NCBI GenBank assembly: GCA_918262735.1
Contig: CAKJYJ010000005.1
Span: 6,541-70,540 of the forward strand
Origin: Clostridiales bacterium
GTDB taxonomy: Bacteria > Bacillota > Clostridia > Christensenellales > UBA1242
Reading direction: 5' to 3'
Length of the DNA stretch: 64,000 nucleotides
Both the position numbers and the translations under genes were made by a program. Shown here piece after piece: positions 4,201-35,140 of the stretch. The notes below the pieces were generated by a model. It had not been told where the DNA came from, searched no databases, and worked only from the letters and a program-made list of their open reading frames with translations. Position 1 is the stretch's first letter. Each line of letters begins with the position of its first letter.

Positions 4201-7200
4201 ATTGAATATCCATTACCATCTAACATACGTGGCGTTGTTTTTATGGTTTCAAATTCATTTCCTTTAATTGTTATATCGCTAACAAGCCTGTAGTATTCAT
4301 CATCTTCAACCAACTTTAATTTTTCATAGCTGTTAATTGGCATTGGGACCTTTTCGCTAGAATTCATATAAACACGAACATTAAATACTGCACTTCCAGT
4401 GTAAATCCTATATATACTATTTGATTCAACATTAGTTAAATCACAAGTTGGAACCCCATTTTTATAAATATAATCATATTTTACTTCAAACTCATATGGT
4501 GCTGAATCAAATATTGCTTTTGGAGTGAATATACCATTTTTGAATAAATAATTAATTGCTCCATCGTCACTTAAACCATCATTAATTTCAATTCGTCTTC
4601 CATTTATATCAAAATAGAATGTTGACAATTCTTTGAATGAATTTAAGAATTGTTGTCGAAGACTATCGCTTTCATATTCCATTGATATTTTATTAGAAAT
4701 AACTTCTTTTATATCTACCGCACTCAAAAGCCTCAGTGAAATATTGTCATCAACAAACAAGTTTTCATTATCTAAAAGAACTTCATAAACACGTAAACTT
4801 ACAACAAAGTTCGCACTTTGTGTTAAGACATTATTCTCTATTTTTCTGCCAAATGAGGTTATTAAAACTTCATAATAAGGATTTTCTCTATAATCAATGT
4901 TAATATTTGAAATATTCAAATAATAAACGCCACCAATGTCGCTTATACTTGCAACATTTGCATCTGAAGAATTGAAGAATACCTCATCTTTATTGAATCC
5001 AACAATATTTGTTACTACGGCATAATTCTTACCCTTTGCAACACTATAAACCGCATTAACTCCCAACGTGTCACTTGGTTCTGGGTCTTTACCGTACAAT
5101 TCAAATTCAACCTTTTTGGTGCTTTTTGCAATAACAGTTATTCCTTTGTAATAGCAGAGTTTTGGTTGACCGTTTTCTGTTTTATAGAAATACATATCAA
5201 TTGGAACATATGTACCCTGATTTATGGATGCAGGTAATGAATATATAATTGCCAAATCCAATGTTCTTTCGGCGGTTGCTGTTTCGGTGTCATAAATTGA
5301 TTCGTTAATTATGTCTGCTCTATATATCCTAAGTGTTAAAACGCCGTCAACCGATGTGTAAACAACTTTATAACTAATATTATAGTATGTTTTATTATCT
5401 TCAATAATCTTTTCAGCCAATGCTAGATATCCACCAGAAACTCCAGAATTCATTGTAATATCAACGTATTCAAATTCGCTAAGTTGTGTGTAAATATATG
5501 TTCTTAAAACATTCATTTCTCCAGAAGATGCAAAGTTGCTTGTGTTTATCATTTCAGATGCAATAAACTGATTTTTGTTCAGATTATTTCTCATGTATAG
5601 GTTTTCTTCGTAGTTATAGTTATTAATTAGAACCGATGTGATTGTTTCTGGAGTGTAATCAATTGTTAAATATTCTCCCTCAAATATTTTTAATGAATGC
5701 ACGAATAGTTTCAAAGCGCAATCCTTAAGCCATCTATAGTTATATGATGTTACAATCATTCTTATTTGATATGTTTCGAAATGTTTAATCCCATCAACAC
5801 TTGAATCTAGTTTAATTAATTTGAAAAGTCTATACCCGTTACTATCTGTTATATAACTTAAATTTGGATCAACAGTATCCTCAATAGAATACATCTCATT
5901 ATTAATATATGGGGTTATTTGAATAATATCATCATTGCTGTAAAGGTTATATGAAATCGACATTTGAATTGTGTCGGTTGGTTCTGCAGCAATATTGTAC
6001 TTATCTATTTCAATATTATCTATTCCCGTCACAGTGCTTATTGCATATGGAACTGAATATGATTCTGCAATATTTGCTGAAAATTTATAGAATCCCAATT
6101 CTTCAACATAAACACCATACAAAACACTGCCCTCTAAAATTAACACAGGGTGAATTTTAATTAATAAGTCCTCATCACTATCTACCAATGATTTTAGGAA
6201 TAATGTTTGTCCTGCAACTCTAACTTCAACAATATCGTCAACTAATATTCCATCTTTATACACATAACCTTCAAATGTTATTTCTGTGTTGTTTTGAAGA
6301 TAAACAGGAGTGTTTTGATAATTATATATATCTGAGTAAGCATTAACGAATAATGTTTTTACCTTATTATTAATAAGTTGTATGTTAGATGTTGTTATAA
6401 CTTTATTTTTATCGGTATATGCTCTAAAATCATCAAAATAAGTTGTTATATAAACCTTTATTGATGCATTATTTTTGTAATTCAAGCTACTATATATTGT
6501 TAAATTAAATGAACCAAGCCCACCAAACTTTAATAAACTGCTATAATTTGTAAAGTTTGCAAGACCTATATTGTCGGTTTCAACAGTAATTTCTTTTGCT
6601 GATATATTGGCAAGTTTTAACAATTCTAAAGTATGCATTGAGTTTTCAATTTTAACTTGGTCGTTTGCATTTTTTGCTTTTTTATAAACCGCAAGAACTA
6701 TGCTAGATATAATGCTTCCACCATTAATTCTTTCTTCCGCCTCTTTTTCGAATTCACCACCATAAACCGTTGTGTAAAAATCCCCGCCGTCATCATAAAG
6801 AATAACAGCAAAATCTCCGTAATAGAAATCAATGTTTAAATTTGGGTCAACACGAAGATTTGAATCATTTCTGAGAGTTCTTGTAACATATGACTCAACT
6901 TTATTGCTTTCATCAAAATTTCTTGTTGCAAAAGCATACAGTTTTTCATATGTGTCGCCATATCTAACAATAAGTGAAATATCAATTCCTTTTCTTGTTC
7001 CGTTGTCGGTTGCCTGAACTTTGTTATACATCACATTTGTTATATCGGCAAGTTCACTCACACTACCAACAAAGCCACAAACATTTCCAGAGCCTCTAAC
7101 GTAAACTCTGCTAATGTTATTTTCAACTTGACCATACGAATAATCTCCCAAGAAACCACCAACAAACGACTCTGCTGATGCTGAAGAGTTAACAACAGTT

Positions 7201-10200
7201 CCAACTGCTTTAATATTAGAGATTAATGCAACATCGCCATCTGTTGATCCGTTTTTACCAACAACGCCACCCAAATAAGTTGCGTTAGATTCAATGCTTG
7301 CATTAACATTAATACCAAACAAACCAACAGAAACTAATGTTGCAGAACTAAATAGGTTTTTAATTCTACCTTCTCCGGCGTTAATTCCGCAAACACCACC
7401 AACATACAAATTTGTGCTTCCAGATTGAATAACAGTAAATTTATTATTCATATCAATTAAAAGTGTTGAATTAATTAACTTATCTGTAATTTGAATATCT
7501 GCCACATTTTTTCCAGCGACCAAACCAATATAAACTGGCACTGCGTTTAAACTTTCACTGTTTATTTCAAGTGGACTTGTCTGTTCACCATAAAGGCTAA
7601 CCGTAACATCACGAATTAAACCATAGTTAACACCACACAAAAGTCCAATATCTGCCTCTAAAGTTTCAATCACCCAGCTTTCTTCACTATCAAACATTCC
7701 AGAGATTGCCAAATTATATATTTTTGCTTCGCTTCCAATTGTTTCAAACATTCCGGAATTTTGTCTGCCAGAATTAACAACCTTAAAGTTAGATATTGAA
7801 CCAATTTGAACGGCCGAACCAAAATCCTCATCTAGTTCACTTAAGAACGTTCCTCTAAGTGTTCCATTAAAGTTCTGTAGTTTAATTTCTTCTCCGCCAC
7901 AATCAATGTTTCTATCAATATAGTAGTGCCTATCTGCAAGCATAGAAACAATACCGCGATAATCTGATATTTTTAATGCAGACTGCTCTGTTTGACCATC
8001 GGCACAGACAAAAGGTAATGCAATGTGATAGTAATAGTTTCCATAATTATCTTTAACATTACTTGATTTCATTTTTGAAACAGGGAAAATCCTAATTATT
8101 CCAGAGCCACCGCTAATATATGTAAATGTCAGATTATTGCCATTCTGTGTGCAAAGCAAGCAATTTGACCCGGTTTTATATTCAATAAATACTCGAATAT
8201 CCTGCATCATTGCATCGGTTGGCATAACATAAAAACTTAGATTAACTTCATTATACTCTTCTGTGTTATCTAAATAAATATCTGTTCTGCCATTAACCAT
8301 ATATAAATTGTCCACATCAATGTAATTATCAATATTAATGGTTATTTCTGAAACATAACTGCTACCCGTTTTGTCTGTTAGCCTTAGGCTAATTGAGAAT
8401 GTATCAATAATCCTAATACCAGTTATATCGCAAACAAACTTAGCTATATACACATCATCTTCGCCGCCGAGTTCAAAATAGCCCAGCGTTCCAACCGGAT
8501 ATTTTCCGTCATCATTCATATGACCAAAATCAGTGGCAGGAATTCTCCAGTTATCTATTGTTATTGCTAAATTTGAACTGCTAAGTTCTCCCATATTGTG
8601 AACCACACTTCCACTTAGAGTTGCATCTAAATATATGAAAGCTTCTGAAAGATTTTGATTCATATATGAAAGGTCATTTTTGTTATAAACAGAAAGATGT
8701 TTAACCTTTCTAGTATTATCTAATATGTCATCAACAAGTTCATCATGACTTGTTGTTATTTGCAATATTTTAATATAATCAATGCATTTAACCGCAATGT
8801 CGTAGTGTTTTGTTGTTAAAACATCAAGACTAAAAGCGCTGTTTGCTTTGTATATTGTTAAAACAACCTCAATGGTAACATCTTCGTCATCTTCTGTGAA
8901 ATTTTTAGCTGTAATAACACCATCGTCCACAACAAAATAATCTTCGTCGCGGCTTTGCACTGTGAGACCAAATGACATTTCGTCTGCATCTCTGTAATTT
9001 AGTATTTTTTCATTGAGTTTTACTTTTGAACCAATACCCTTAAAAACAATGCTATTAACACTGTTATTTAGTTCTGGATCCACTGTGAATTCAGAAACAT
9101 TATTTCCGCTATCTTCAGCAATTTGTAATTGAAAATCTTCTATGGTTATTTCTCTCACAACAACCACAGTTAAGAATGTTCGTAAACCCGTTTGAGTTTC
9201 TAATCTGAACTCAGTTCTTCCAACTTTATTTGCCGTTATTTTTAACATTGGAGTTTGGTAATAAGCTGGTGATGAAAAATCCTGCTCAACATCACAAACA
9301 GAGCCATTTAATGATAATCCAGTTATGTTCAATCTACCAACAGTGCTATTTTCATCAGTCATAAAGCCAGAGAAAAATCTCACAGTTTTCTCCGTTCCTC
9401 TTGACATTGGGATATAAATTGTTGAATCCTCGTATGTTGGATTAATTGTGAATGTTGTGGTTCCCTTATATACCTTAAAATATATATTATTTGAACATAT
9501 AACATTATTAGAATTATCTAGGCAAGATATGGTTAAAACCAAATAGTTTTCGTATGCCATTATTGATTTAACACGCAAAATTTCATTTAAGGAATCTAAA
9601 GTTAACAAATCTATTGCAGTATAATCATAAAGCGATTTATTGCCGTAATAAACCTCAACATATTCAAGGAAGGTTGACCTTTCCATATATGTTGGTTCTT
9701 CACCTGAGGTTATAACTGCACTATAAGTTTCAATTGAATAGTGATAATCTTGACCATTGTATGCACCCTCAACACTTGGGAAAAGTGCAAATCTAAAATT
9801 GAATATTTCTTGACTATTATCGTAAAGTTCAACTGTGTCTATGTTAGATTGCCCATTAATTCTTAATTCTTTTGGCAATATATTAACATAAACCGGTATT
9901 TTTACCACTTCGTAATTTGAAATAAAATCTGCCTGATATATCTTAAATGTTAAGTAGAAAGGAGAATCTGGTTGCGTTATTGAATTTGCCTGAACAATGA
10001 AAGAAAATTCTTCTTCTCTTCCAACGATTGGAGCACCATTTGCAATCTCCCCAGTTAATCCTTCATCGGCATAGGCATCAATCTTATAAAAAGCACGTTC
10101 TGATTCAAACTCATAACCAACACTAACTAGTTTTTGGAAATTTGTGTTGTCGTTTAATGTTAATTCAATTTTACTAATACCCTCTTCTTCAAAAGGATAC

Positions 10201-10946
10201 AAACTCTCAATGGAATCGGCATCAAAATTGCTTGGATTATCTAAATCTTGTGAATACATTGTTACTGACAATTTGCTTAAATCAATTTGATTAACAATTT
10301 TAACTCTTAATTCTGCTGTTATTAGGGTATCAAACAAACTTGTTGCAACAATGATTACCTCATTAATATCATTTAACACAGATAACTCTTCATCAACATA
10401 AAGAGTGTCAGACAACCATGATATACCCATGCCCGAAAGTTCCTCTTCATTTTTAAGAGAAAAAGCAAGTGCGGTCTGTGAAGTGTCTTGTGGGTTAAAA
10501 TTAAAATCTGCCACACTAATTTTTATACTCTCACCTCTTTTAACAAAAACGTCAGATCTTGCCGTTAAACTTTGAATTGTTTCAGAAATATAAACAGGAA
10601 TTTCAATTTTTGTATCTGTCCCCCTAATTGTTATGGTTAAATTTGTTGTTCCTGTCATCTTTGGTGCAATTTTTAATGTGTATTTACCTGCACCGATGTA
10701 GGTTAAAGAATTATCAACAACCACAGCCAAACGCTCTTCAAAACGGAAATCAAAACTAATATTACTATCTTCTTGCATTTCATTTACGGTAATTGTGTAT
10801 TCTTGGTTTTCTTCCGCCATTGTTAAATTTATGGTTGGACTACTAAAAGAAAGCGTGAGAGAACCACCCGCCGAGTCACAACCGGCAAGTATTGCTCCCA
10901 ATATGAATATTAAACTAAATGTTACTACGCTAAAAAACTTTTTCAT
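1242..10946 (-). CDS. Giant surface lipoprotein 1 (3,234 aa): Ig-like beta-sandwich region plus about 3 GLUG-type beta-helix modules
   Basis: The ORF is 9.7 kb without a stop in AT-rich DNA. The signal peptide MKKFFSVVTFSLIFILGAILAGC has lipobox LAGC with Cys23. An RBS GGCGGGAGAG lies upstream. Reiterated GLUG-like coils include YVGGVCGINAGEGRIKNLF, LGGVVGKNGS, GGFVANNNGQISSCYV, TGGFVCNNSGKISMCYIEG, AGFVYQNDGIITDSYSN and AGFVGINNNSISRVYS. Module entries include DCGGEEIKLQNFNGTLRGTF (~7950), MPINSYEKL...MLDGNGYSIIITGN (~4345) and GSQYNPYLISTAVEFEDY...FEGNNFNISNY (~2900). Confidence 0.9.
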   Translation of the reverse strand: MKKFFSVVTFSLIFILGAILAGCDSAGGSLTLSFSSPTINLTMAEENQEYTITVNEMQEDSNISFDFRFEERLAVVVDNSLTYIGAGKYTLKIAPKMTGTTNLTITIRGTDTKIEIPVYISETIQSLTARSDVFVKRGESIKISVADFNFNPQDTSQTALAFSLKNEEELSGMGISWLSDTLYVDEELSVLNDINEVIIVATSLFDTLITAELRVKIVNQIDLSKLSVTMYSQDLDNPSNFDADSIESLYPFEEEGISKIELTLNDNTNFQKLVSVGYEFESERAFYKIDAYADEGLTGEIANGAPIVGREEEFSFIVQANSITQPDSPFYLTFKIYQADFISNYEVVKIPVYVNILPKELRINGQSNIDTVELYDNSQEIFNFRFALFPSVEGAYNGQDYHYSIETYSAVITSGEEPTYMERSTFLEYVEVYYGNKSLYDYTAIDLLTLDSLNEILRVKSIMAYENYLVLTISCLDNSNNVICSNNIYFKVYKGTTTFTINPTYEDSTIYIPMSRGTEKTVRFFSGFMTDENSTVGRLNITGLSLNGSVCDVEQDFSSPAYYQTPMLKITANKVGRTEFRLETQTGLRTFLTVVVVREITIEDFQLQIAEDSGNNVSEFTVDPELNNSVNSIVFKGIGSKVKLNEKILNYRDADEMSFGLTVQSRDEDYFVVDDGVITAKNFTEDDEDVTIEVVLTIYKANSAFSLDVLTTKHYDIAVKCIDYIKILQITTSHDELVDDILDNTRKVKHLSVYNKNDLSYMNQNLSEAFIYLDATLSGSVVHNMGELSSSNLAITIDNWRIPATDFGHMNDDGKYPVGTLGYFELGGEDDVYIAKFVCDITGIRIIDTFSISLRLTDKTGSSYVSEITINIDNYIDVDNLYMVNGRTDIYLDNTEEYNEVNLSFYVMPTDAMMQDIRVFIEYKTGSNCLLCTQNGNNLTFTYISGGSGIIRIFPVSKMKSSNVKDNYGNYYYHIALPFVCADGQTEQSALKISDYRGIVSMLADRHYYIDRNIDCGGEEIKLQNFNGTLRGTFLSELDEDFGSAVQIGSISNFKVVNSGRQNSGMFETIGSEAKIYNLAISGMFDSEESWVIETLEADIGLLCGVNYGLIRDVTVSLYGEQTSPLEINSESLNAVPVYIGLVAGKNVADIQITDKLINSTLLIDMNNKFTVIQSGSTNLYVGGVCGINAGEGRIKNLFSSATLVSVGLFGINVNASIESNATYLGGVVGKNGSTDGDVALISNIKAVGTVVNSSASAESFVGGFLGDYSYGQVENNISRVYVRGSGNVCGFVGSVSELADITNVMYNKVQATDNGTRKGIDISLIVRYGDTYEKLYAFATRNFDESNKVESYVTRTLRNDSNLRVDPNLNIDFYYGDFAVILYDDGGDFYTTVYGGEFEKEAEERINGGSIISSIVLAVYKKAKNANDQVKIENSMHTLELLKLANISAKEITVETDNIGLANFTNYSSLLKFGGLGSFNLTIYSSLNYKNNASIKVYITTYFDDFRAYTDKNKVITTSNIQLINNKVKTLFVNAYSDIYNYQNTPVYLQNNTEITFEGYVYKDGILVDDIVEVRVAGQTLFLKSLVDSDEDLLIKIHPVLILEGSVLYGVYVEELGFYKFSANIAESYSVPYAISTVTGIDNIEIDKYNIAAEPTDTIQMSISYNLYSNDDIIQITPYINNEMYSIEDTVDPNLSYITDSNGYRLFKLIKLDSSVDGIKHFETYQIRMIVTSYNYRWLKDCALKLFVHSLKIFEGEYLTIDYTPETITSVLINNYNYEENLYMRNNLNKNQFIASEMINTSNFASSGEMNVLRTYIYTQLSEFEYVDITMNSGVSGGYLALAEKIIEDNKTYYNISYKVVYTSVDGVLTLRIYRADIINESIYDTETATAERTLDLAIIYSLPASINQGTYVPIDMYFYKTENGQPKLCYYKGITVIAKSTKKVEFELYGKDPEPSDTLGVNAVYSVAKGKNYAVVTNIVGFNKDEVFFNSSDANVASISDIGGVYYLNISNINIDYRENPYYEVLITSFGRKIENNVLTQSANFVVSLRVYEVLLDNENLFVDDNISLRLLSAVDIKEVISNKISMEYESDSLRQQFLNSFKELSTFYFDINGRRIEINDGLSDDGAINYLFKNGIFTPKAIFDSAPYEFEVKYDYIYKNGVPTCDLTNVESNSIYRIYTGSAVFNVRVYMNSSEKVPMPINSYEKLKLVEDDEYYRLVSDITIKGNEFETIKTTPRMLDGNGYSIIITGNTIGTNVENVNNFALFETIKSGSVFKNINIVVSNTHTTLTINNNYTMNANIGILCATNNGLITNCCVKGGGLLEVSVITSVTAMENTYFGAIAAVNNGYVTNSRVTASMSLNGGSLGGFVANNNGQISSCYVKEAKIMNKTSRANDNIVTGGFVCNNSGKISMCYIEGHISDKVYCYYNADSESTASKNIYSSLATAGFVYQNDGIITDSYSNIPIDSSSKCAGFVGINNNSISRVYSLSRMRVNDTLNYAFVISEGEKSSFEDCYFAIVDGVINYYTSETNYQKDVNSNVYTSRIPGVNPISLYDFSLVDKHGEVKNNGLFSNFLINKENGLLTDAVWFYVNDIPTLNDAGLTDQKMKNGQTYSAVCEGFDIYDFETERFEKTGFVAGRLQLVSPNIIANSRYSLNLDNNTTIEDGKYSYSSDDAKIAYGSQYNPYLISTAVEFEDYCNQGNMGILEYYRLICDIDYTQERVYNTKLYDRTLIAHFEGNNFNISNYSVNSSSSINSGGLLAGIGQTSTTVSVFKNITLKPYYVNLPNAIFVGALAGTLTNANVYNVNVEGQNVIVTGSNILGGVFGRTAGVTDVRNVFANVIVKSTQYGSVLIDNKEDVGGLAKNLSYNETTVNKTSVSYSGGIIGYVGGMADISVVAVGEDSRSYGVVAGLLFGGVGASACVHDIDVELNSFNNEIQAMAFGGIITGENRGTIQDITINSDILNKTLFKTNPICPIAIGGVAGLMNGGIIKNVSSEKGYDVIGASFTGVYANELINGFVTDSINNPYVVKYVGGIVGYYTYGYIETINIGHHDEEHEENCTGLIICGSNYVGVIVGYMDIAPGTSALSSSIISGDISINLTSHKKYINSNGTELDEFVYTSYVSEASVNMNNNFIFDNSLYFGLITSIVKSDETTFSNVTISGAATITISKKVYFYYADYSITEAKVFTFSKYTTQNTINNSINIISGGAYYDGKYEVKTINLQGLPIN

Positions 10947-10982
10947 AGTTCTCTCCCGCCTTATCTTTTATTGTTATGGTTA

Positions 10983-11027: not shown

Positions 11028-14000
11028 TTATTTGAAAGTATAGAATCTAACCGCAATGCTGTCGGTTCCGACCCACTCAATCGAACTACCATTTATGTAA
11101 ACATAATATAGCTCATTGTCACCACCGCCAGGAACAACTTGGTTATACTCATTAATAGTGTTGTTTTCAATTAAATAGGCAACCGTTATTAACTCATCGT
11201 CTCCCCAATAATAGTTTTCATCGGTATATCCATCTTTTTTCAACACATATTTACCTTGTATTACTCCACAATTATTTATTAAATTATTTTCGTATTGGTT
11301 ATATGTAACTCCCAGAGGTGTTTCAATATACTTTACATCTGAAAATTTAACCGCAGAATATTTTATGTTAACGTCTCCATTATTGTTTTCTGATAAAGTT
11401 GTGGCAAATGTATGATTTGTATTGTCATACGTAATGCGAATATCATACATTACACGGTCTGAAGAATTTGCACAAGTTAAAGATGAATCGCCATATATGT
11501 AATTCAATGTTAGTTTTGTTGGAATAACAAATTTAACACCAGGTATTGCAAATGACCCATTCTCACCGAGATCATAGTTATGTCCATTTTTTTCGTAAAC
11601 AACATTCAAACAGCTCATTTTGCTTGATATTGGAACAACTGGAACAAAACTGTCATATCTATTACCAATCACGTTATACATATTTGCTTTGTCGGCAGGG
11701 GTTTCTAATTGATATGAAAGCGTTGCTTTTAATCCATATTTTTTTATTGTGTCATTGTATTCATAAACACAGTCTTTTACATCATAATTATAAGTAGAGC
11801 CATGATCGGTTGAGGTAACTGTACGTAGGTTATAATTTGAAACAATCACGTATGTCTTTGCACCAATACTCTTGTAGTAAACATCAGTTCCAATATCGGT
11901 TATATCTTGTGAACTCTCTTGCTGGAATTGCTCTGAGAAGTATTTACCATTATATAACGATTTTGAAACATAATAGCCTTTGTACATAAATCCGTCATCG
12001 CCAATTGTATTAATTTCAATTGTGTTAGAGCCATCAACAATATCTAATTTTTTTGTCAAGCCGGCGTATATATTAACCCAATTTTCACTACTTCCAACAC
12101 TAACCCTATTAAATGTAGTACTCTCCATGTCCTCTAATGTTACTTTGGCAATTGTTCTTTCGTAATCTGCATTAACGCTTAATACATGTACACTCAATGC
12201 ATTTCCTGTAACATATTGCTTCCATATTCCGTTCGTTTCCTCATTTAGCGATAGGTATTCTTTTATTGCAATTGTTTTAGAGCTGTTATCATAGAATAAC
12301 TTCATAGACACTGGTTTTATAACAACTGATCTTGATGTCTTAACCACCGCTCCATTATGATTGCTATTTGGAATATCTTTTGTTTCTGAGAAAATAAGTC
12401 CTCCATTCATACCAAAATTCATGTCGATTATTTCCTCGTTAAAACTTTCTTGTTTATCAAACACTTTTGAATAAACAATATCGTTAGGGTTTAACTCTAA
12501 TTCAAAGTCATTAAATGCATCACCCGATTTACTAAGGCTTAGGAAAATTATTTTAACTAAGAATCTGCCATTACCATTATCTGCAATTGGATTTAATCTT
12601 GTTACCGTAATTCTATATTTTGTTTCGATACTTCCTTCATATTTTTCTTCTCTTATGTTGCTAACACTAACTTCATTATTATTAACGCTATAATCAGCAT
12701 CATACCATGAGTTACCATAATTTGAAACAAACGTTAAATCTGCCTCATAAATAGTTGCATAACCATTTGTATCATTTTCATATGAATAATAAGAATTAAT
12801 ATTAGACACAGAATACTGATTGTAACTGTCAAATGTATTTGTATACGTATTGCCATCAATTGTTATTTGTTCTTCTTTATGAGCACTAATCTTATTGTTG
12901 GTATAGGTATAGCCATAAGTGTCCAATGTTCTTTGATTGGTTGGTGGCGTTGCTGTGTAGATATATCCACCTATATTAGCATTACCCATTGTGAAACCAT
13001 ATGATTGAATTTGGCCTTTAATATATCCACTACTATTACCATTTCTTAAATCATTTGGTGGTTCAAAACCATACTCTGATTCTCCAGAGGCATAAATATC
13101 TTTAACACAAACAGAATATATTTTTGTTCCATCCGTATTTCCATCATAAAATTTATAACTGTTATCAAGATCAATCTTCTCGGCTCCAATCGTTGCAGAG
13201 TTATTAATTGCAGCAGAGTTATTAATTGCAACAGACCTTACAATAACATATATTGAACTCATGCCCAACCCTTCGTCTGCATTTCCGTGGCCGATATATT
13301 TTCCTGCATATGCTTTTGATGGAAGAACATAAACATTTGTATTTGAAACTTTATTGTATCCTGCAAGAATATAACCAGAAGCATAACCATTTGAGCCATA
13401 TATCTTTGCACCACTATACTCTAATGAATTAGCACTTGCTAAATTTGCACCAACAATTCCACCGGCAAATGCACTTTGTGTTCCATCTGCAACATCTGCT
13501 GAAATTGTGAGTGACTCTGAGAAGAACTGAACAATTGGCTGTGTTATTGTTGTTGTGCCCTTATTTAGACCAATCACTCCACCAACATAAACATCTGTTT
13601 CAAATGAAACCGCCATAAATTCTTCTAAATTAACGTGAGAATCGGTTATTTTTAAACTTCTGCTTGCCCCGGTGTTAAGGTTTGCACCAACAATTCCACC
13701 AACGCAGTTGATTGATGTTTGAAGTTTAATATCAATACCAGTGAAATCCACACTCTGCAAATCCGCATTTCCAGAACCAACAATTGAACCAATAACGCCA
13801 CCAAAAGAGCAGTTAACTCTGCTACCGCCAGTTCCCGCACTAATCAAATAGCCCTCTTGCCTAAATTCACCAATTGTTATGCCTTCATTTTTTATTTTGA
13901 CCTGTCCATTTGCGCACCCAACAAGGCCAGAAATGTTTACAAATCTGTTTACAACCTCGTTTGAAATTAATAAACTATCAATTTGAACATAACCATTTTG

Positions 14001-17000
14001 TTTGCGTTCGTTAACAGTTAACTTTCCACCAGCAACAACCTCGCCAACCAAAAGTCCAAAGTTGCTGTTATATTTATTTGAATCATCAAGTTCTGGCGTC
14101 AGCTTTTTGTGATAAGAAAGTTCAACATTACCCTTATAATTAAAACTATTAACAACAAGGTCTTTAGTTTTTCGAATAAGTCCATAATTGGTGTTGTTTG
14201 TTATGTTTAATTTCATTCCTCCAAATGCTGAAGCAAAATTGGTAAGTGTTATAGTACCATTATACCTGTCAAGCACATTGCCAGCAACTTCAATAACTGT
14301 GTTGTTTTTTGCGCTTATGATGATTGTTGAATGATTGTTAATATCACCCTCTCCATCAAACCATCCATCATACTTATTGTATTGCTCTAAACCACCATAT
14401 TGGGTGTTATTAATTGTGTAAGCAAGTTCTCTCCATGTTAATGGGTCGGTTAATAAGAATAAATATGGATGTTCTTTTGTTCCTACATTTTCAGCATTTT
14501 CATTAATTGGAACAAATATATCTGGATTTACAGTGTCTAACTCTCCATCGGACCAACCATTGCTCCACGCGCTAGAATTTCCAGTATAATTGTTCAATAA
14601 TGGTTTAGTATTATTAACATCAAACTCATTAGCAAGAGTTGCGTTATTTGCTGTGCCATATTTTATTGAATTACCATATTCATCACCATAGAAGAATGTT
14701 AATTTACTGTTGTTTTCATCTGATGTGTTTAATGTTAAAACTTTTAATCTTTCGCCAGTTTTAAGTGCTTCTGTGTTTATGGTAACATCTTTTGTTACCT
14801 TAAATTTACCGTTTTCTTCTTTATAATTGCGGGTATGTGATTCAATTGTTAAATTATTTGATTCTATACCTGGAGCAATACCATCATAGTATATGGCTTG
14901 TAAAACCTTGCCAGGACTTCCCACCCCACTTGCATCTTCAAAATACATTTTTGAGTAATCATCAACAAAGTTTAAATTTTCATCTGTAAACACACTATTA
15001 AACTCAATATGCTTTAGTGCTGTTGACACCGGATTGTCCATAAATGCATTCATGTTAAAATCTGTTGAATTATTAATATATCCAACATTATCATCATCCG
15101 CTTTAAATACCTTTTGAACAGTGTCTTTGTTGGCATCAGACCCAAACAAACCATAATATTTGTTAGAATTTCCAAGAACAGGACAATAATTTAAATGAGC
15201 GGTCTTTGCCTCTTGTGATTCCTTATAGGCTTGAATGCCACCATAAAGCGCTAAACATCCAGCAACAGCTATCATAGCCCAACCAACTGGATTATATGCA
15301 TTTGCAGCACCAATGAGTAGAGCCGACTTCGCCCCCACCATCGTAACGGCTGCATATATGCCAATTGCTGCCATGCCGATTGCACTAGCACCCCAACCTG
15401 TTGACTGTAAGCCATGCAAAAATGAGTTACTTTTTGTTGTTAAAATCATAACCGGTTTCCATGCCTTAAAACCACCAGTAATAACCCCGGTGTTTTTTAA
15501 TCTGGTTGAATTTTCTGAGTTAATATTGCTTTCGGTTAAATAGTTTGAAATAATACCCCCAGCATAAGCATTTGATGTTCCAAGTTCCAAAACATAAATA
15601 GATTCTAGTCTAGGACTATATTTATACCTGTTGTTTTTTCTAGTTCCACTCGTGTCAAATTCAAATATCCATCTTGCCTTGGCAGTAACGCCCGCGCCAT
15701 TGCTACAATCACTTATTTTTAATGAACCAGAACACGCGCCAACAATTCCGCCAACATGTGAACTGGTGCTTGCTGGAATGTTTAATTCCACAGAGTCAAC
15801 GCTCACACTGCCCAAGTCTTCACTTCCGCCAGCAATTGTTGATGATTCCACGGTGTAACAATTAGAAACCGTTCCTGAATCCGCCTCACCAACTATTCCG
15901 CCAACACAAACAACATCAGCAATAACATTAATATCAGCCTTATCAATAATTCCACAACCAGAAACCATTCCGTCAGTGGTGTTGTATCCAACAATTCCAC
16001 CAACGGTAACTTGTAAATTGTCCTTAGTTTCAACAATAATAACACTGCTCATTGTTGCATCAACTCTTTCCCATTTGTTGCCATTTTTTTGCCCTACTGT
16101 TCCCATGTTTTTACCAACAAATGTTCCAAATGTGTAGTTATTGGCTGCACCAGCGCCAGTTAATGATGTTAAACTAACTTTTGAATTAATAATAAGCCCC
16201 GCGTTTTGCCCTATTAAAGCAGAAACATATTGGTTCGCTGATGTTCCTCCAGTGTATTTTACTTCACCTGTTAAATTAACATTGTCTATTGTTCCATTGT
16301 TTATTTTAATTGGAACACCAGTGCCAATAACGTTAACATTATCAAAAGTTAAGTTCTTTAGTATTGCATCTGTTTTAATTGTTCCAATTAAGCAACTTCC
16401 TTCTGCCAATGTGACATTATAAACTGTTTTACCATCACCATTAATTTCTTCCGGTGTTGTGTTAATAAGTGTTGTCTCTGATGTTTGACACAATTTATAT
16501 GCCAACGTGTCTTCTGAGCCATTTTTTATGGTATATCCCAAAGCTCCATAACTATTTCTATTAACATTATCAACAACATAACCAAAGTTAAGGCTTCTTG
16601 AAATAACATATTTTCCATCATTTGCAACTTTTGAAAGTGCGGTTATTGTGTTAATAACGCCATACTCTCCAGCATTGCCAGTTTCTGAAACATAATAATA
16701 ATCCCAATTAGTTTTCTTACCGCTTTCAATAACTGTTTTTTGAGTTTTATTTAACATTGTTAAACGTTTTGTGTATGAAAGTTCTGCAAAAGGACCATCC
16801 GAAAGCGTTGGATAGTTGCTGTTATAATTTGCATCACATTTATAATATTTGTCTGTGTACTCTCCACATAGTGCCGTGGTGTTATGACTTAATATTGTTT
16901 CACAGGCATCCTTTTCATACAAACAACCCGTATTTGCATTGTGAGAAATTGTTGCAACGCCATTGCTATCATAGGCAGTGGCAAAAGTAGTGTAACAATT

Positions 17001-20000
17001 TATTACTTTTGCATTTCCACCATTATCGATTATAAACAAATCAATATTTCTTGTGACCTCTGTTAATGAGCCAATTTCAGCATACCCCATTGCATATGAA
17101 TATTCAACTGTCCCAGAGTTTTTAAAAATAAACCCAGATATTGAGCCAAAATTATTTTTTGAATATGTGCTAACAATATTCATATTTGAATATGAACCAA
17201 ACACATAGCCATTATTGGTGTAAATAAATCCAGCAACAATACTTGCATCAGTTTTAAGATAGCCATAGAACTGAGTTTTAACCGGATTGAAATTGGTTGC
17301 GTCTAAATCTTCATAGTCAACCAAAGTTTCCTCTGCACTGCAGGTGTAAACAACACCATCATTTGTGTTTGCAAAGCCCGCAAGAGAAACATTCTTATCT
17401 AGTTCGGTTTCGTCTGCATATATTCTTGATTTAACGCCCGAAACAAAACTTGTGCCATCAATTTTTTCAAATGGAACAAAATTTGTTGTTATTGATTGAC
17501 CATCTGCAAAGAAACCAATGTTAAATAGGCTTATTCTGTTTGCAAATGATTGACCTGCTGTTATGTCCTCAGAAAGATAGAAGTATGTTTTTCTACCATC
17601 GGATATTGTTCCTCTTAATTCTTGACAACCATTTTCAACTTCTGCACTGTAGCCATCACCTTCTGAGCTGTGAGAATTAATATTCATGCTGATGTCATAA
17701 ACATAAGGATTCAATTTGGTTCCTTCTTCAAATATTTGAGAGAAACCACCCAACCTGGTATTCAAACTACCAAATGCTGAATTTACTGCAGCGGTTTCAC
17801 TTACACATAGGTTAAGATTTGATGCATAGAACGTTTTAACAGCGCCATCGGGTCCGCAATTAATTTCTGATGTGTTATTTTCTTTTATTGCAATTGCATC
17901 AAACAAGTGTGCATTATTGTGTTTGCTGTATAGTGTTGCCAAACCAATTGAATTGGTTAAATTTAAGGTTGTGTTTACTTCAACCTGACCAACAACACCA
18001 CCAAAATATGATGTTGTCGTTGTTATTAAATCATATTTTATGGCACTAAGGCTACTTGTTGTGTTTTCTAATAATATGTCACCAAAAACATATGCAGAGT
18101 CCACATTAATACTATAATTTGCATTTGTTATGGCACCAAATAATCCACCAACATAGTAGGTTGTTTGGTTTGTTACTGCGGTTTTGTATTCAAATGATAT
18201 TGTGCCACCAAAGATTAGTTTTTTTGCTGACATATTTTCCCCTGGAGTTGCTGGCTTAATTTGACCAACAATTCCACCAATATACATTTTCGCACCGACG
18301 TCAGATTCTTGGGCTTGATTTATAATAATGTTGCCATTATATATCAACGCACCGCCAGCCGGAGTGTCTATTCCGTTGTCAGTAGAACTCATTTTTTCAG
18401 TATAGCCACAAGCACCGCCAACAAATGCGGATGTTGCACCTGCAGGAGAATCCACATATATTGTGTTATAATCATTTGAAGCTTTGCGCCCAAACACTAA
18501 TTCAATTCCAGAAGAATATTCAAAGCTATTGGCTCTTCCAACCATACCGCCAACGTGTATTGCATTATACACACCAATAACTGTTACATCACAACCGGTT
18601 GATGACCCAGCAAATGAATCGTAAACAACAATAACAGAGCTGCTTGCTTTTCCAACAAAGCCACCAACATTTAATACTTGATTTCCATTGTCGCACTTAA
18701 CATAAACCACTCCACTAGACACACTAGCATTTGATATTGTTGTTATATTCTCCACATGTCCACCAATAAGCCCAATGCTTGACTCTTGTGATGGAGTTTC
18801 ACTTTGTGGTAAGCTCACAATAACCTTTCCTTTAACAGAAGCGTTGTTAATATTTGTTGCACTGGCTTTTGATTCACCAAAAACCAAACCAATATTTGCT
18901 TCATTATTAACCGGTTTTATGTCTGATGTTGATGTGTCATTATTTCCTATATAACAACTAGAATTGATTGATATATTTCTAATATCAACAGTTCCACCAG
19001 TTTTACCACATGCAAACAATAATCCCGCATTTTTAACATTTTTATCGGCTATTGGTCCAATCTTTAAGTAACAGTTCTGAAACTCAATTGTTTGGAAAAT
19101 TGTGTTATCTGCTTGGAAAACAACGCCAGCAATATCATAGGTTCCAGCCACACTGCTACTTACCGAACTAAAATCACAATTTCTGTATATTAAGTCATGA
19201 ATAAATGTCCCGTTAATTGCCTCATTTGCAATTGGTGCTGAGAAATTTTCTAGATTTATACCACATATTTCTGCACCATTTAATGTTTTTACTAAAGGAA
19301 CAGATAATTTTGTAAGCGTAATAGAATCATTAAGACCCATGAGTGTACCCCTTAAAACTGGGTATGAAATCTTAATTCTACTACAATCTATATTATTAAC
19401 AATCACAAATTGTGAATCTGGGTTTCCACCGTATCTTCTAATTAAATCAAAATCATCAACCGTTGAAATTGTGAAAACATTAACAGATTCAACATATCTT
19501 ATTGCTGGATATAAACTATCAGTTTTCTTTATCCAGTTACTTGCTGAATACCAACCTGTTTGTTTGAAGGCTGTGTCAACCTGAGCACCACCATCAGAAC
19601 TAAGACCCGCATAGTTGTAGTAACTTGGTATCGTTACTGCATCAACTGAAAGGTTAGTGTTAATATCATCATTGTTAGTTTTAACGAACACTGGAATCGT
19701 CTTGTTTGTGCTATCATTAAACACAACTGTGATTCTGGTGCCATCAACATCATAAATTCCTTCGCCACTCCCTGGTTTCCAACCATTATATAGTGCAGAT
19801 ACGCTTGAATAGTTTATATTACTACCATTTGAGTATGCATTCCCCGATTCTTCAATGTGAACAGAATTATCAAACGCTATTTGAGCAATATGTTTACCAC
19901 TATCACTAACACTAATTGTTTCTTTGCTCCAAACATTTAATGATGCTACCTTTTTAATATCTAATACACTAAATTTGTTAAGGCCAATAACTCCGCCCAT

Positions 20001-23000
20001 ATATGAATCTGAAGCCCCTGCATAAACGTCACCAGTTGCATAAACCTCATTTATTTGAATTTGGTAATATTCATCTGAACTCTCATCAGTAATATATGTT
20101 GGGTTAACTAAACCAATCACACCACCAGCGTATTTTACTGTGCTGTTTCTTACGTTTATTTTTGAATAGCCAACGTCAATTATTCCCCTGTGCATTACAC
20201 CAACTAAACCACCAATAGTGTTTGGTCTATAAAGAGTTTCTTCACCGTCAACTTCAAATAGTTTAAGCTCTCCTCTATCATAATCTAAATTAGATTTATA
20301 ATATGTTTGAATATTTTGTTCAATATCTTTCTGCCAAGTTTCTTCGTGTTCTGCTTTAATCTGATATAAGTATCCACAGTTAAATCCAACAACACCACCT
20401 GCAAAACAATTATATGCAATTAATTTTGCCCCACGAGAAACTGTGAATGATAAATCCTTGGCAACAACAAATGTGCCAATGTAGCCAGCAACACCACCAA
20501 CGGTCATTGCTGTTATTGTTTCAATACCTTTAACGCTTAAACCTTGAACGTTTGCTTCACGAAGGTCAGTGTTTGCAATAACTTTTCTGCTAACAAATTG
20601 TTTTTGTGTGAACAAATCCAGAATACCAAATGCACCACCAGCTATAGATAGTGTTGCAAGTCCGGTTCCTTCCATGTTTGGTGTGTTGTTTGTTAGTTGT
20701 AGAGCATTAAATGATTCGCTTTGGTTGTATGTTGCTGTTACAGAAACATTTTCAACAGTTACACCGGCTATGTAGCAATCGCCAGCAACTCTACCGACAA
20801 CGCCACCAACAATGTTGGCACCAACGACTGTTGGTTTGTCCATGGCGTTCATTGCATACACCCTTACATTAACAAGTATAGAATCAGTTAATGTTCCGGC
20901 AATCGTTCCAACGTTAACTGTATGGTCGGCATTAACACCACCAGTATCTAAACCTATATTTAAGTTCTTAATTCCAGCACCATTTTCAATTGTTTTGAAC
21001 ATACCATAGTTTTGAGAACTTGTTTTACTTGGATTAGATATTGCCAAATGACTAATTGTTAAACCATTTCCATCCAACAAACCAGGTCTGTCTGATAAAT
21101 ATCTGTATTGACCGGTTAAAGAAACATCTGTTGAAGTTAAACTATACTTATAGTCAGTTGTTTCAACCTCTTGGTCATCTATAATAAGTTCATTTAGGTT
21201 AATATTATTAACTAATCTATAAGAACCAAATGCTTTTCCGTTTTCAATATTGTCTGCAAATACAGTTTCAGTTCCACCAAACACATCATTAAATTCTTTT
21301 GCATCTCTAATGATGATTGGGTTGTTAACCGTTCCATATTCGTAGTCATTATCGTACACAAACACATATGCAAGTGAACTCGTTTTGCTTACACTTCCAT
21401 TATTATCTGCTTTATATCTTATTGAATGTGTTATATCATCAGCACTAACTAATCTTGGTCCTTTGGTTGAAATTTTCCAAGTTGCTTGTAAATCATTTGA
21501 TGAACTTCCAAAACTAAATCCATAGAAATTAAAGCTTGAGTTAACATTTTTAACAGGCTCAACTTCTGTGTTGTAAACAGGATCTAGTAGTGTTAAATCC
21601 ATAACGTCAGTTGAATAATAATAACAAGATTTTATTAATCCACGGTTATTATATTCCATTAAATCATTCACACCAATAAAACTTAATTGTGATATATTAT
21701 TCCCCGCAATAGATGAGAATGAATAACTACGCAAAACTTCTCCATTCAATTCATTTTGATACACAAAACCTGCACCCAAACGTCCAACCTGATTGCTTGT
21801 GGTTTTTATCATAATGTTACTATAACAGTCTGCTATTGTGTTGGTGTTGTCGTAAACAAACCCTGCAAGTATGCCATTTCCTTCTATTCCACCATTCATG
21901 GCTTGAATGTCCACATCATTTCCAACACCTTCAACATAGCACATTGAAATAGCACCATCGTTTGTGTTAACAAACCCTGTTGTTACCATTGTTTGGTTGC
22001 GGTCATACGTGTTAATCACATTTATATTTTTTGCAAAACTGCTTGAAATAACCGCTCCGGTATTGTTTTTTATAACAAAACCAGAAACTGTTCCACCAGC
22101 ACGGATTGTAAATGTCTTTGCTTTTGTTTCGTTTGTTCTAAGTGTTGGTTTAACAAAATTGTCACTAGATGTTGGGTACACAAATGATGAAACAAGTTTG
22201 CTATCTCCACCAACTCTACTATTCGTTATGCTACCATTATTGGTTATAACCATACCTGCAGCATTAACCGTTACGTTTGTGTTTAAAGTTGTTACCTTTA
22301 ATCCATACGTGGTGAATGTTGGAGATCTTTCTCCTGAAGCAAATGCCATTACTTCTGTGTTATAAACAACGCCTGAGTTTGTTATTGCAAGACCTGCTAT
22401 GTCAACTCTTATTATATCTTCGCCTAAATTTATTTCTGGTAAGTAATAGTAATTCACTGTAACGTTTTTAATTGTTGTTCCTGAAGAAATTGTGTTAAAG
22501 AGTGCAAAGGTCGCAGATGTGGTTGTTGGTTCTTTGAAACTAACAATGTTAATTGTGTAGTTATTACCATCAAAAGATTTTATTTTGCTTGTGTTTGGCA
22601 TTGATTCATTAACATCGTAGTCATATAAATAAATATTGTTGCTTAAAATGTAATGATTTGCCTTTTCGCTGTTATTCATTGTTTTGAATGATTCAGCATC
22701 AGAAATTTCAATTGGCATATCCTCTGTGGTATATAGTGAGTTTGAAATTGTGAAATAGTATTCGTAAACATATTGTGCGCCATCTGGCATTGTTCTATAT
22801 AGCCTTAATAACATTGGCACTTGACCAACCCTATCTCCACCCATAACATACAATTTTTCGCCAGAAATTCCAAATGTTACTATATTATTATATTGTGGGT
22901 CTTCAACGGCAACAAATTCTTTTCCGTTAATACCATTTATAACTCTTCCAATTGAATATGCTTGATTACCGTTTAGATAATAAAGATATGAAACAAGGTT

Positions 23001-26000
23001 ATATGCTGCACCACCATTATCGTTTCCAAGTTCAAACACTATGTTTTCTGATGCTCCGCCAGAAGTTGAAAGTTTATAATAGTAGTTCGCGTTAAACTCT
23101 GCTATTGCAGATAATACGTCTTCATTTTCTCCATGATTAAAGTTTGTGTAAAGTTCTAACATCTTTGGTTTAATGCTGTTAACTTCCAATTTACCCTCAT
23201 TAACATCTTTAATCTGTATTGAATTATCAACAACTCCAAATGGTGTTATGTAAATGAAAATTGGAGCAGATTTTGCCGTTATATGTTCACCTTTCTCGAT
23301 TTTTTCCGATTCAACATATAAATTTAATGGTATTTTTGATTGGTTAAACGCAAAACCATTTTCACCATCAAAAGGAATGGTGAATGTTAACTTATATTGC
23401 CTGTATCCAACATTTGAACCTTCTATTTCTTCAAATTCAACCAAAATACTGTCTAACACAGTTCCATTGTTGTCTGTTAGGTAAACTTTTTTAATAGTTT
23501 GATCATAAGAAATATTTGCTCTGGCAGTTAATGTTTCTCCCATATAAGCATATATTGATGTTTGACCATCAATTGAAATCTGAGGAACAGCCGGAGCTTT
23601 AACATACAGTGTTATGTTTGATTCTTTTTCAAGTTTCACACCTTTATAGTATGCACTAATGTTTATGTTGATTATTGCATCTTGATTTAATGTGTTTGTT
23701 GGGAAAATAATGATATAGTACGTGCCGATATCTTGTACCAAATCACTATTTTCTGATAAGTTGTTGTTAATTCTAATTCCGTTAACATCATCTAAAACTT
23801 GATATCTTGCATTGTTATCAAATGTGTAAACATCTCCTTCTTTACGTTGAATTCTGTATGCAAGTTGAGCAAGAGTGTTTGATGTGGCAACAATGTCAAT
23901 ATAATCAAGAGTTGCATAATTTGGGTATAAGTCAACAACCAACAACGCTCTTCCTGTTGGTTTAATTACTGATGTTGGGTTAGTCCAAGAAACAACAGAA
24001 TAATCTGTTCCACCACTGCTATACCCTGATACTTGTTCATACATTGCAGAATGAACGCTTGTTAAAGTTTGAGGAAGAATCGTTAGCTGCATTTGACCAA
24101 AAGTACTATAAACAATTTCTCCATCCTCTGAGCAAGCATACACCTTTACTCTGTATGTTTTGTCAACATAATTTAATGAATATCTATATTCACTCTTAAG
24201 TCCAATAACAATTTCAAAGTTATAAACGTTTGAATTTGCCGTTAACTGTCTTCCACCAACACTTATATCAAAAGCGTTTGTTACATCGTAATCATATTGA
24301 TTTTCAATTCTTATATTTTCTTTAATAACCTTGTCAGTTGGCATATCGGTTGTGATTGAAGCATCAAAAACAAATGTATCTTTTGGTTCAATGCTTCCCT
24401 CTGAAGCAGAAACCCCAACATTTGTTGTTCCTCTACTCAGTACCAACTTAACAAAATAATACTCTCTTGTGCCACTTCCTAATTCAGATTCAACTTTTAG
24501 GAAGTAATTATTGATTATGTCGTTATAAACCTCACTATATGCCGAGTATATTTTTGCAGATAGTATCTTTGTTGTTTCTTCTCTGTTCCATGTTGCATGG
24601 ATGGTGTGATTACCAAGAGTTGTTCCTGTTACATAATTTGTTGCATCAATAATGTTTTGCCAGTCATTCAAGTCTTCTTCATCATTGAACATAAAGAATG
24701 CAATATTAAAGTCATTTTGTTTTAATTCTATTCCATCAACAATAACCCTACCAGCTGATGAAATAACTGAACTTCCACCAACAAGGATTTTTATTTCGCT
24801 ACCCTTTTCAAGTTTCTCTATGCCTTCAACAAATCTAAATTCGTCAATGAAATATAATGAAACCATATGAAGCGTTATACTTTGAGTGTAATCGTATTTT
24901 GAATAAACAATCAAATCAAATTCGCCAATGCTATTAATATGAATCGTGTTACCAACAACAGAAACAATACGAGAATTAATACCAAGTTGATCTAATGCTA
25001 AAACCTTTATTGAGCTTCCTAGGTTTGTGTAAACTAAATCTTCAACCGTAATTGTGTTGTGTGTTGATAACCCATTTTGTTTTGTTGAATCTTTAGCCTC
25101 ATAATAGAATACAACACCATATCTTGAAGAAGAATCGCCAATTGAATGCCTTTCAACAGTGTTCACATATCCAGTGCCATCAAGTTGATTACCAACATCT
25201 GAATATGATATCAGGTCAACATATTCTTGTGCCTCTAGGTTTATATCTTCATGAGAATTGTCAATGAACATTATACCATTGATTGTGTTTAGTGTTCCAC
25301 CATCGTTAACTTGAATAGTTCTTCCAATTGCTTCCATACAGTCATTAAATCTAGCAACAATTAAAGAACAATCTTCAATAGTTCCGTTATTTATTCCATA
25401 TAAACCGGTTTTAATAACATTACCTTCACCGATTATGTTTTCATTTTTTGATGCAATTGTTCCAAGGAAAGAACAATTCCTTAGCGTTCCGTTGTTTGTT
25501 CCAACAACACCACCAACACTTCCGTTACCTTCAAAACGAACTAAGCTTGGAATGTAATTTCCGTTCTTTATGTATGATGTGATTTCAACATTTTCAATCA
25601 AACCGCTGTTTGTGTTCGCAATCATGCCTTGCGCATTTGATGTTCCGTAAACAACAAGGTCTTTAATAATTGCTCTTGAGCCAATAGCATCAAATAATGA
25701 ACAATCATCAAGACATAAAGTTGCTGGAATATCATGAGCCTCACTAACACCATAAAGACCCCCATTGAATACTTCACCAACAAATAATGTTGAATTGAGC
25801 ACCAATGTTTCATTGCTCACAATTTTATAGTGTTTTGAAAGATTACCAATCTGTAGAAGATTGCTAATTCTAAATGCCGTGTTATAACTATTACCATCGG
25901 CAATAGTGATTGGTATTATTATTCTCTTAACAGAAACCGTGCTATCCGTGTATTGTGGCGTAATAACAATTTTACCCGTGCCACCAACGGTTCCTGGAAT

Positions 26001-28898: not shown

Positions 28899-28974
28899 AA
28901 AACCTCCAAATCTCTTAGAATATTTTGAGCTAACACAAAAAAACTATGTAATATTACCTTTTACTCTAGTTATT

Positions 28975-29003
28975 ATTATATAAATAATAGGGTTCCAAGT
29001 CAA
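28975..29003 (-). promoter_or_regulatory. Near-consensus sigma-A promoter of giant gene 2 (TTGACT-N17-TATAAT)
   Basis: On the minus strand, the -35 TTGACT is at 29003..28998, the spacer is 17 nt, and the -10 TATAAT is at 28980..28975. It lies about 77 nt upstream of the ATG. About 110 nt of almost pure A/T (29004-29116) lies upstream of it. Confidence 0.55.
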
Positions 29004-29615: not shown

Positions 29616-30182
29616 TTATTTATTGCCAAATGTAAGATAGTTCGATGGGTCAACAAAAGCACCATTGAGTTTTATTGCAAAATGTAAGTGTGCCCCCTCT
29701 CCACTTTCATTTGATGCCGAAGTTGATGCTTCGCCAATCTTTTGTCCTCTTTTAACCCTTTGCCCTTTCTTTATATTGTCTGTGTTTGTCAAAGAACAAT
29801 ATGTTGTGAATAGCCCATCACCATGGCTTAACGTTACACAATATCCATCTTCATAAGAATACGAACAATCTGTAACCGTTCCGTCCAAAACAGCATAAAC
29901 ATCATTGCTTACACTTGATGCAAGGTCAACCGCTCTATGGCTCTCCCATTGTTTTAACGTGGAATTATAAAATAGTTCCGTATCTGAATACCACTTTATA
30001 ACCTCTGCAGAAGAAAGCGGACACATCATTTCAACAGGGCTTGTGTTGGTTTGCTCGGTTTGATCTATAACCAAAGACGTTTGTGTTTTTTTGCCGCTAG
30101 TTCCTGCGGTTATCCCCACCGCAAAGATTAGCGCAATTGCAACCATATAGTACCCATATTTCCTCAAAAAGTTTTTAATCAT
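29616..30182 (-). CDS. Membrane-anchored M23 (LytM-type) peptidase
   Basis: It has an N-terminal TM segment (YYMVAIALIFAVGITAG). The HxxxD motif (HRAVD) and HxH motif (AHLHF) are intact. The tail GQKIGEAS...VDPSNYL is typical of Peptidase_M23. Confidence 0.8.
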   Translation of the reverse strand: MIKNFLRKYGYYMVAIALIFAVGITAGTSGKKTQTSLVIDQTEQTNTSPVEMMCPLSSAEVIKWYSDTELFYNSTLKQWESHRAVDLASSVSNDVYAVLDGTVTDCSYSYEDGYCVTLSHGDGLFTTYCSLTNTDNIKKGQRVKRGQKIGEASTSASNESGEGAHLHFAIKLNGAFVDPSNYLTFGNK

Positions 30183-35050: not shown

Positions 35051-35140
35051 AAGCTTTTTAATAATACCATAAATAAAATATTTTTGTAAAGACAATTTCC
35101 CGAATATTTTATAGTGAACTATAAAGACACATTTATCTCG

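Follow-up and report, generated by a model that had tools for sequence, protein, structure and literature searches.

In the Zmp/IgA1 proteases, a signal peptide and an LPXTG motif are followed by two hydrophobic segments, for which a hairpin has been proposed whose second member serves as a second signal peptide that restarts export (PMC3518915). Helices of only marginal hydrophobicity can be inserted into the membrane when aided by the next helix and by positive charges in the loop (bioRxiv 10.1101/014175). Here we describe a pair of hydrophobic, alanine- and glycine-rich stretches located ~76% of the way along a 5,956-amino-acid (aa) lipoprotein, encoded in a 64,000-nucleotide stretch of DNA from a Clostridiales bacterium (GenBank contig CAKJYJ010000005.1, positions 6,541 to 70,540; hereafter the window, numbered from its first letter). 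Judged from the sequences of its relatives, this segment is real and has been conserved in an orphan family of giant lipoproteins of rumen Clostridia, and the simplest reading of it is a second membrane staple of marginal hydrophobicity.

The gene that hosts the segment was taken from the list of open reading frames (ORFs) and occupies 11028..28898 on the reverse strand (-) of the window, the G+C content of which is 33%; it has a GGAGG ribosome-binding site on its 5' side. Its translated product begins with a lipoprotein signal peptide (MKKISKLLLCAFALVCGLFIAAC; 28830..28898, (-)) that contains the lipobox IAAC and Cys23 and is the most hydrophobic part of the protein on all scales used. Positions 15225-15395 (-) translate exactly to the 57 residues (aa 4502-4558) that a first-pass annotation, made from the letters of the window, had quoted as an internal two-helix hairpin. 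Three parts can be distinguished: (i) helix 1, aa 4502-4523 (WGASAIGMAAIGIYAAVTMVGA; 15330..15395, (-)), a proposed stop-transfer segment recognized by translation and hydrophobicity scales; (ii) a connecting loop, aa 4524-4536 (KSALLIGAANAYN; 15291..15329, (-)), whose sole charge is Lys4524 and whose length varies among homologues; and (iii) helix 2, aa 4537-4558 (PVGWAMIAVAGCLALYGGIQAY; 15225..15290, (-)), which begins at an invariant P-x-G turn and is a proposed re-initiating signal-anchor. The remaining 1,398 residues form the C-terminal lobe (aa 4559-5956; 11031..15224, (-)). Motifs of the GLUG-like form GG[IV][IV]G flank the segment, with three at aa 4300-4383 and four at aa 5033-5146, in agreement with the earlier statement that about 1,400 residues and a further GLUG module follow the hairpin. 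Across the entire protein, the looser expression G[GA][ILVF][ILVFAT][GA] finds 18 motifs.

The hairpin region was searched by exhaustive HMMER against 1.84 billion representative proteins, and two matches only were obtained. The first, P0001, is a 503-aa fragment from a rumen Clostridia metagenome-assembled genome (MAG). The second, P0002, comprises 1,881 aa, its N-terminus being cut by the end of contig L001 of a yak-omasum Clostridia MAG, and aligns to aa 4015-5486 of the giant protein, and so to much of the C-terminal lobe, at 27% identity; the identities of the two relatives to the giant protein are about 27-35%. Word-indexed protein searches gave P0001 only in a first run and P0003 only in a second, the latter being a fragment from a buffalo reticulum MAG (contig L002) that is 86% identical to P0002 and whose contig stops just before the hairpin. 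No further relatives emerged from two scans of JGI metagenomes, from a scan of IMG/VR, or when 50,697 phage records were searched by tblastn. The family is thus an orphan one with three detectable relatives (P0001-P0003) in ~1.8 billion representatives, all from ruminant fore-stomach Clostridia MAGs, and conservation of the hairpin was assessed across three sequences, namely the window protein, P0001, and P0002. All three share, in order, G[WY], an uncharged stretch of 21-23 aa, a loop of variable length, the invariant P-x-G, and a second uncharged stretch of ~21-25 aa ending in Tyr; the uncharged stretches measure 21-22 aa in the window protein and 21-25 aa in P0001 and P0002, and an aromatic residue (W/Y) stands at the helix ends in each case. 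In this alignment it is the architecture of the hairpin that is conserved, and not the sequence itself. An assembly artefact was rejected as the source of this architecture, given that the same arrangement is found in an independent MAG.

Conservation is tighter on the two sides of the hairpin. Residues 4444-4483 (AYAGGIISNYLT...TRLKNTGVITGGFKAWKPV; 15450..15569, (-)) constitute the 40-aa stretch of highest conservation within the C-terminal 1,960 residues, with 63% identity to P0002 versus 26% overall and with invariant columns in the three-sequence alignments (pattern AYAGGIISNYLT...TRLKNTG..GGF.AYKPV). Within this motif lies LKNTG (aa 4467-4471; 15486..15500, (-)), the only L.NTG of the 5,956-aa protein, which is situated 30 residues N-terminal of helix 1 and is invariant as L[KR]NTG in the three homologues. 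Its resemblance to the sortase motif LPNTG is offered as a lead only. A sortase LPXTG site was considered and rejected, as the giant protein contains no LP.TG, K/R stands in the place of the proline, and the motif lies too far from helix 1. Another L..TG, LQSTG (aa 4497-4501), abuts helix 1 and is not conserved; it, too, is reminiscent of the LPNTG and hydrophobic segment of IgA1 proteases, but has no proline. On the C-terminal side of the hairpin, the motif LNYCPVLGNS (L.Y.P.LGNS, aa 4569-4578; 15165..15194, (-)) has its L, P, G, N, and S invariant in the three homologues, and in the alignment GNS follows the P-x-G turn at a constant distance of 37-40 aa.

The composition of the segment was compared with that of the remainder of the giant protein. 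The richness in small residues that had been claimed is confirmed, with 25 Ala/Gly among the 57 residues, relative to a mean of 8.3 for 57-aa windows of the protein and a maximum of 19 elsewhere. The further likening of the segment to zipper-type packing finds no counterpart in the sequence: GxxxG and the strict glycine-zipper motif ((G,A,S)xxxGxxxG) are absent from both helices, and the sole [GAS]xxxGxxx[GAST] match in the segment, ALLIGAANA, falls within the loop. The segment sits within a 69-residue stretch having one charged residue (Lys4524) and provides the highest 57-aa hydrophobicity window of the protein. Its description as the only long hydrophobic stretch after the signal peptide fails at 19-21 aa, where windows at aa 103-131 and 2794-2813 are about equal in hydrophobicity to the hairpin helices. 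Compared with shuffled versions of the protein, which keep its composition, the segment has an unexceptional mean hydrophobicity (1.2; shuffle maximum 1.12 +/- 0.16), and a low-charge stretch of 69 residues is attained in 3% of the shuffles. What raises the segment above chance is conservation in its relatives, not these statistics.

The reading that we favour, tentatively and at slightly short of an even chance, is that the conserved Ala/Gly-rich helix-turn-helix is a second membrane tether in the producing cell, with both lobes lying outside. Because GLUG-like rungs occur on both sides of the segment, the lobes should share a compartment and the chain should cross the membrane an even number of times (two or zero); the repeats thereby suggest a common compartment for both lobes. 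Under the proposed tether, the N-terminal lipoprotein signal would route the chain into the Sec pathway, Cys23 would be lipidated, and ~4,480 residues of beta-helix-rich chain would be exported first. Helix 1 (aa 4502-4523) would then exit SecY laterally as a stop-transfer segment, leaving Lys4524 and the short loop in the cytoplasm, and helix 2 (aa 4537-4558) would insert N-in/C-out and resume export of the last 1,398 residues. The chain would thereby be held at two points, by lipid on residue 23 and, ~76% of the way along, by the hairpin, and the conserved flanks (AGGIISNYLT...L[KR]NTG...YKPV and L.Y.P.LGNS) would be placed at the outer face of the membrane. Plausible support comes from (i) the paired uncharged stretches, P-x-G turn, and end aromatics, which are kept at low identity in P0001 and P0002, and (ii) the functionally constrained neighbourhood of the hairpin, which lies beside the stretch where conservation peaks within the C-terminal 1,960 aa.

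Hydrophobicity scales, applied as simple calculations, provide a third plausible line of support, in that Kyte-Doolittle, Eisenberg, and GES all rate the helices as transmembrane. The Kyte-Doolittle 19-aa means are 1.73 for helix 1 and 1.64 for helix 2, relative to a classical threshold of about 1.6; the Eisenberg <H> values are 0.66 and 0.64, respectively, with a hydrophobic moment of 0.06-0.19; and a GES/TopPred-like trapezoid gives 1.86 and 1.73, relative to a 'certain' cut-off of 1.0 and to 2.11 for the signal peptide. In the GES ranking of the giant protein, only the signal peptide scores above the two helices, which come second and third; the equivalent segments rank as the top two in P0002 and as first and third in P0001. 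The distribution of charge is uneven in what it favours: the loop of the window protein carries +1 and its flanks +1 and 0, which is neutral with respect to the positive-inside rule, and the loop of P0001, which contains R/K, has a net charge of +3 with net negative flanks (read from the alignment), which satisfies it.

Several observations weigh against membrane insertion. On the Hessa translocon scale, the 19-aa sums are +2.3 kcal/mol for helix 1 and +3.5 kcal/mol for helix 2 (the signal peptide scores -2.0), and the equivalent values in relatives range from +2.3 to +6.4 kcal/mol, all of which are unfavourable; by these sums, each helix on its own would in most cases pass through the translocon. 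The criteria by which the hairpin qualifies as transmembrane also admit 5 beta-rung segments of the giant protein. Charges are found within the helices of the relatives, with an Asp in helix 2 of P0001, and in P0002 a Lys in helix 2 together with a Glu between the helices, and the loop of P0002, at a net charge of -1, violates the positive-inside rule. In addition, we know of no documented precedent for a restart of Sec export after ~4,500 exported residues. Structure prediction is also unhelpful to the tether, as AlphaFold2 runs on aa 4350-4720 as a single sequence and on aa 4380-4760 with a three-sequence alignment returned predicted local distance difference test (pLDDT) values of 30.7 and 29.0, respectively, which are uninformative on fold. 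Both low-confidence models contain two helices, at ~4507-4532 and 4537-4564, in keeping with the assignment of helix 1 as helical; since pLDDT is ~30, the helix-turn-helix secondary structure alone is usable. Overall, the segment is a borderline case, a marginally hydrophobic helix pair.

The same observations bear on a soluble structural hairpin, in which the helices would pack together and on the conserved flanks, joining two beta-helix lobes without any membrane role. We regard this explanation as a credible minority view, rather unlikely on balance. It would account for the positive Hessa sums, for a hydrophobicity that is not above that of the same protein's beta-rungs and lies inside the shuffle range, and for relatives in which R/K/Q occur in helix 1 or in the loop while helix 2 contains D or K, these charges being complementary (R/K-D in P0001, E-K in P0002); the tightly conserved flanks could supply the remainder of a small domain. 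However, uncharged stretches of at least 21 aa, end aromatics in 3/3 sequences, and a hydrophobic moment of 0.06-0.19 would be unusual for helices on the surface of a soluble connector, AlphaFold2 gave no soluble fold (pLDDT ~30), and no relative was found in the PDB or Pfam.

A further explanation retains the membrane and changes the cell to which it belongs. The hairpin could be latent, shielded in the exported protein and entering the membrane of a neighbouring cell on contact or release. Marginal hydrophobicity is what keeps the hairpins of colicins, the diphtheria-toxin T-domain, and the TcdB delivery domain soluble during export, and the low hydrophobicity of the present segment could be understood in the same manner. 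The segment also matches, weakly and by composition, hydrophobic regions of tape-measure families in PHROG (E = 0.004-0.2); the hydrophobic regions of phage tape measures have been proposed to be membrane-spanning (PMC5099701). These matches are not significant, however, and nothing was found by tblastn in the phage records or in the IMG/VR scan mentioned above. The protein has a lipid anchor that holds it on its own cell, the charges at the hairpin tip are not conserved, and the surroundings are those of a housekeeping chromosome, where no genes for toxins, immunity, or secretion were seen. Taken together, we consider insertion into another cell's membrane improbable. A tape-measure homologue was rejected, as the matches (E at least 0.004) cover the hydrophobic patch only, no phage context and no phage or IMG/VR matches were found, and the gene encodes a chromosomal lipoprotein.

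The first-pass annotation had also suggested that the segment is the scar of a gene fusion, with helix 1 a former C-terminal anchor and helix 2 a former lipoprotein signal peptide, on the grounds that VAGC (aa 4545-4548; 15255..15266, (-)), within the string AVAGC, satisfies the lipobox rule [LVI][ASTVI][GAS]C. A variant of this idea would have AVAGC still cut and lipidated, perhaps giving two lipoproteins, and may appeal to the Zmp proteases, for which cleavage of the second hydrophobic segment, acting as a further signal peptide, has been proposed (PMC3518915). Neither part of the suggestion withstood comparison. The Cys is absent in relatives, the equivalent residues being AVDIV in P0001 and AAS-A in P0002. 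A basic n-region before helix 2 was not found, with no K/R in the preceding 12 residues (GAANAYNP precedes), and Cys4548 lies in the middle of the helix, followed by the ten apolar residues LALYGGIQAY in place of a polar mature sequence. The pattern is found again at aa 4312 and 4992, as well as at residue 2380 of the paralogue described below, and is matched by 3/51 non-signal Cys of the giant protein; since it recurs in this way, VAGC is within chance expectation and is judged a chance match. A functional internal lipobox was therefore rejected by conservation, n-region, position, and rarity. With respect to fusion, P0001 and P0002 each read through the site in one continuous frame, P0002 does so in a syntenic locus, and no genes split at the segment were encountered among these orthologues. 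The C-lobe shows no resemblance to the N-terminus of either lipoprotein, and a word-indexed search for a free-standing C-lobe returned none, although the same search missed P0002 and therefore carries little weight. The fusion-scar or lipobox explanation is largely refuted, and we hold it to be very improbable.

The remainder of the giant protein offers few matches to described families. Pfam and NCBIfam were run on the full-length protein, and also on ten segments of 656 aa each, and yielded nothing beyond noise and sub-threshold GLUG matches, for which the best PF07581 scores are 18.1 and 16.7 bits (cut-off 20.5). A PDB sequence search with the C-lobe found no relative. At aa ~3151-3220 (19239-19448, (-)) there is a faint similarity to Peptidase_M26_N (E = 0.016, below threshold), which probably reflects common GLUG-type beta-helix rungs and not a protease. 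The exact 5,956-aa product is missing from a collection of 15 billion proteins, in which its neighbours from the same NCBI contig (the paralogue, UvrB, and the M23 peptidase) are present; the deposited annotation may use another start, call the gene a pseudogene, or omit it. An ORF of 177 aa with a TTG start, at 28450-28983 (+), overlaps the 5' end of the giant gene in antisense and is in all likelihood spurious, a shadow ORF.

Downstream of the giant gene lies a second, paralogous lipoprotein gene (1242..10946, (-), from the ORF list) encoding 3,234 aa, which is weakly related to the giant protein and has no hairpin. The earlier statement that it has no equivalent of the segment is upheld, as BLAST of giant-protein aa 4381-4700 against it gave a best E of 0.3 and revealed no counterpart; the hydrophobic windows of the paralogue are GGxxG beta-rungs. 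In contig L001, the gene for P0002 is followed by a lipoprotein gene (5719-10961, (+)) whose product is 35% identical over 1,730 aa to the window paralogue; the tandem pair of giant-lipoprotein genes is therefore syntenic, which suggests that the two lipoproteins work as a pair.

The other genes of the window are those of an ordinary chromosome (UvrB, Obg, PriA, Ffh, LepA, HflX, TsaD, and prfB). The giant gene is directly preceded, in the same orientation, by a gene for a 188-aa M23 peptidase (29616-30182, (-)), a cell-wall endopeptidase family, close copies of which (at least 90% identity) occur on other contigs in ENA and Logan assemblies; beside it lies a 159-aa ORF (30246-30725, (-)) that has no Pfam match. 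A few kb upstream of the giant gene are an MprF-like lysyl-phosphatidylglycerol synthase transmembrane-domain protein (33710-35146, (-)) and a polysaccharide deacetylase (32007-33104, (+)), envelope-modifying genes that are consistent with a walled Gram-positive cell. The release-factor gene, seen as an ORF with PCRF and RF-1 domains at 61295-62185 (-), shows the classic programmed +1 frameshift of prfB at 62336-62414 (-): a leader of 25 codons begins with ATG at 62414 and ends AAG GAG TGT CTT TGA C, with the slip site CTTTGAC at 62342-62336 and a Shine-Dalgarno-like AGGAG just 5' of it. Given this frameshift at TGA, TGA is a stop codon here and the standard genetic code applies.

If the hairpin integrates into the membrane, it would represent an extreme case of Sec stop-and-restart, in which ~4,500 residues pass out, a two-helix staple is set, and ~1,400 more residues follow. 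The tether would show a Gram-positive cell pinning a giant surface fibre at two points, and would offer a natural test case for how the translocon handles marginally hydrophobic hairpins. The surface role of this orphan family may also matter to the ecology of the rumen, for instance if these proteins adhere to plant fibre or to other cells. Should the hairpin prove to be a soluble connector, the finding would be an ordinary one. A bolder proposal, to which we attach only a small probability, is that the hairpin and its invariant flanks constitute a new mid-chain module for export, anchoring, or processing, by which export of a megadalton-class lipoprotein through Sec is deliberately halted and restarted after ~4,500 residues and the chain is perhaps processed at the membrane face into two differently anchored lobes, or by which the protein inserts on contact into neighbouring rumen cells.

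When compared with described systems, the present hairpin shares features with several. Helices 8-9 of colicins A and E1, TH8-TH9 of diphtheria toxin, and the delivery domain of TcdA/TcdB all have, within a large secreted protein, a pair of Ala-rich apolar helices linked by a short turn, as is the case here. They differ in that the giant-protein hairpin has no conserved acidic residues at its tip and that no toxin context was found. Siphophage tape-measure proteins similarly possess Ala/Gly-rich, weakly hydrophobic helices mid-way in a very long chain; the weak PHROG matches fall exactly at these hydrophobic regions, whose role in the membrane is also debated (PMC5099701). TM2 of EmrD, TM8 of GlpT, and TM10 of AcrB share with the segment a positive predicted insertion energy, their insertion leaning on the next helix and on positive loops (bioRxiv 10.1101/014175), but these helices belong to compact multi-span bundles, whereas the giant protein would present a lone two-helix unit in ~5,900 extracellular residues.

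The N-terminal module of the streptococcal Zmp/IgA1 proteases (IgA1 protease/ZmpA, ZmpB, ZmpC, and ZmpD; M26) is the closest analogue, the comparison being one of architecture and not of hairpin sequence homology. Both are exported surface proteins of Gram-positive bacteria with GLUG-type repeats and a hydrophobic pair placed after the export signal, and the T-G-ending L[KR]NTG upstream of the giant-protein hairpin recalls LPNTG. Membership of the M26 proteases was nevertheless rejected, as HExxH is absent across all 5,956 residues and the Peptidase_M26_N similarity, at E = 0.016, lies elsewhere in the protein. The arrangements also differ in three respects: (i) the Zmp hairpin lies within the first ~150 residues, whereas ~4,480 exported residues would precede that of the giant protein; (ii) the giant protein has no LPXTG, its L[KR]NTG standing 30 residues before helix 1; and (iii) its primary anchor is a lipobox and not a sortase signal.

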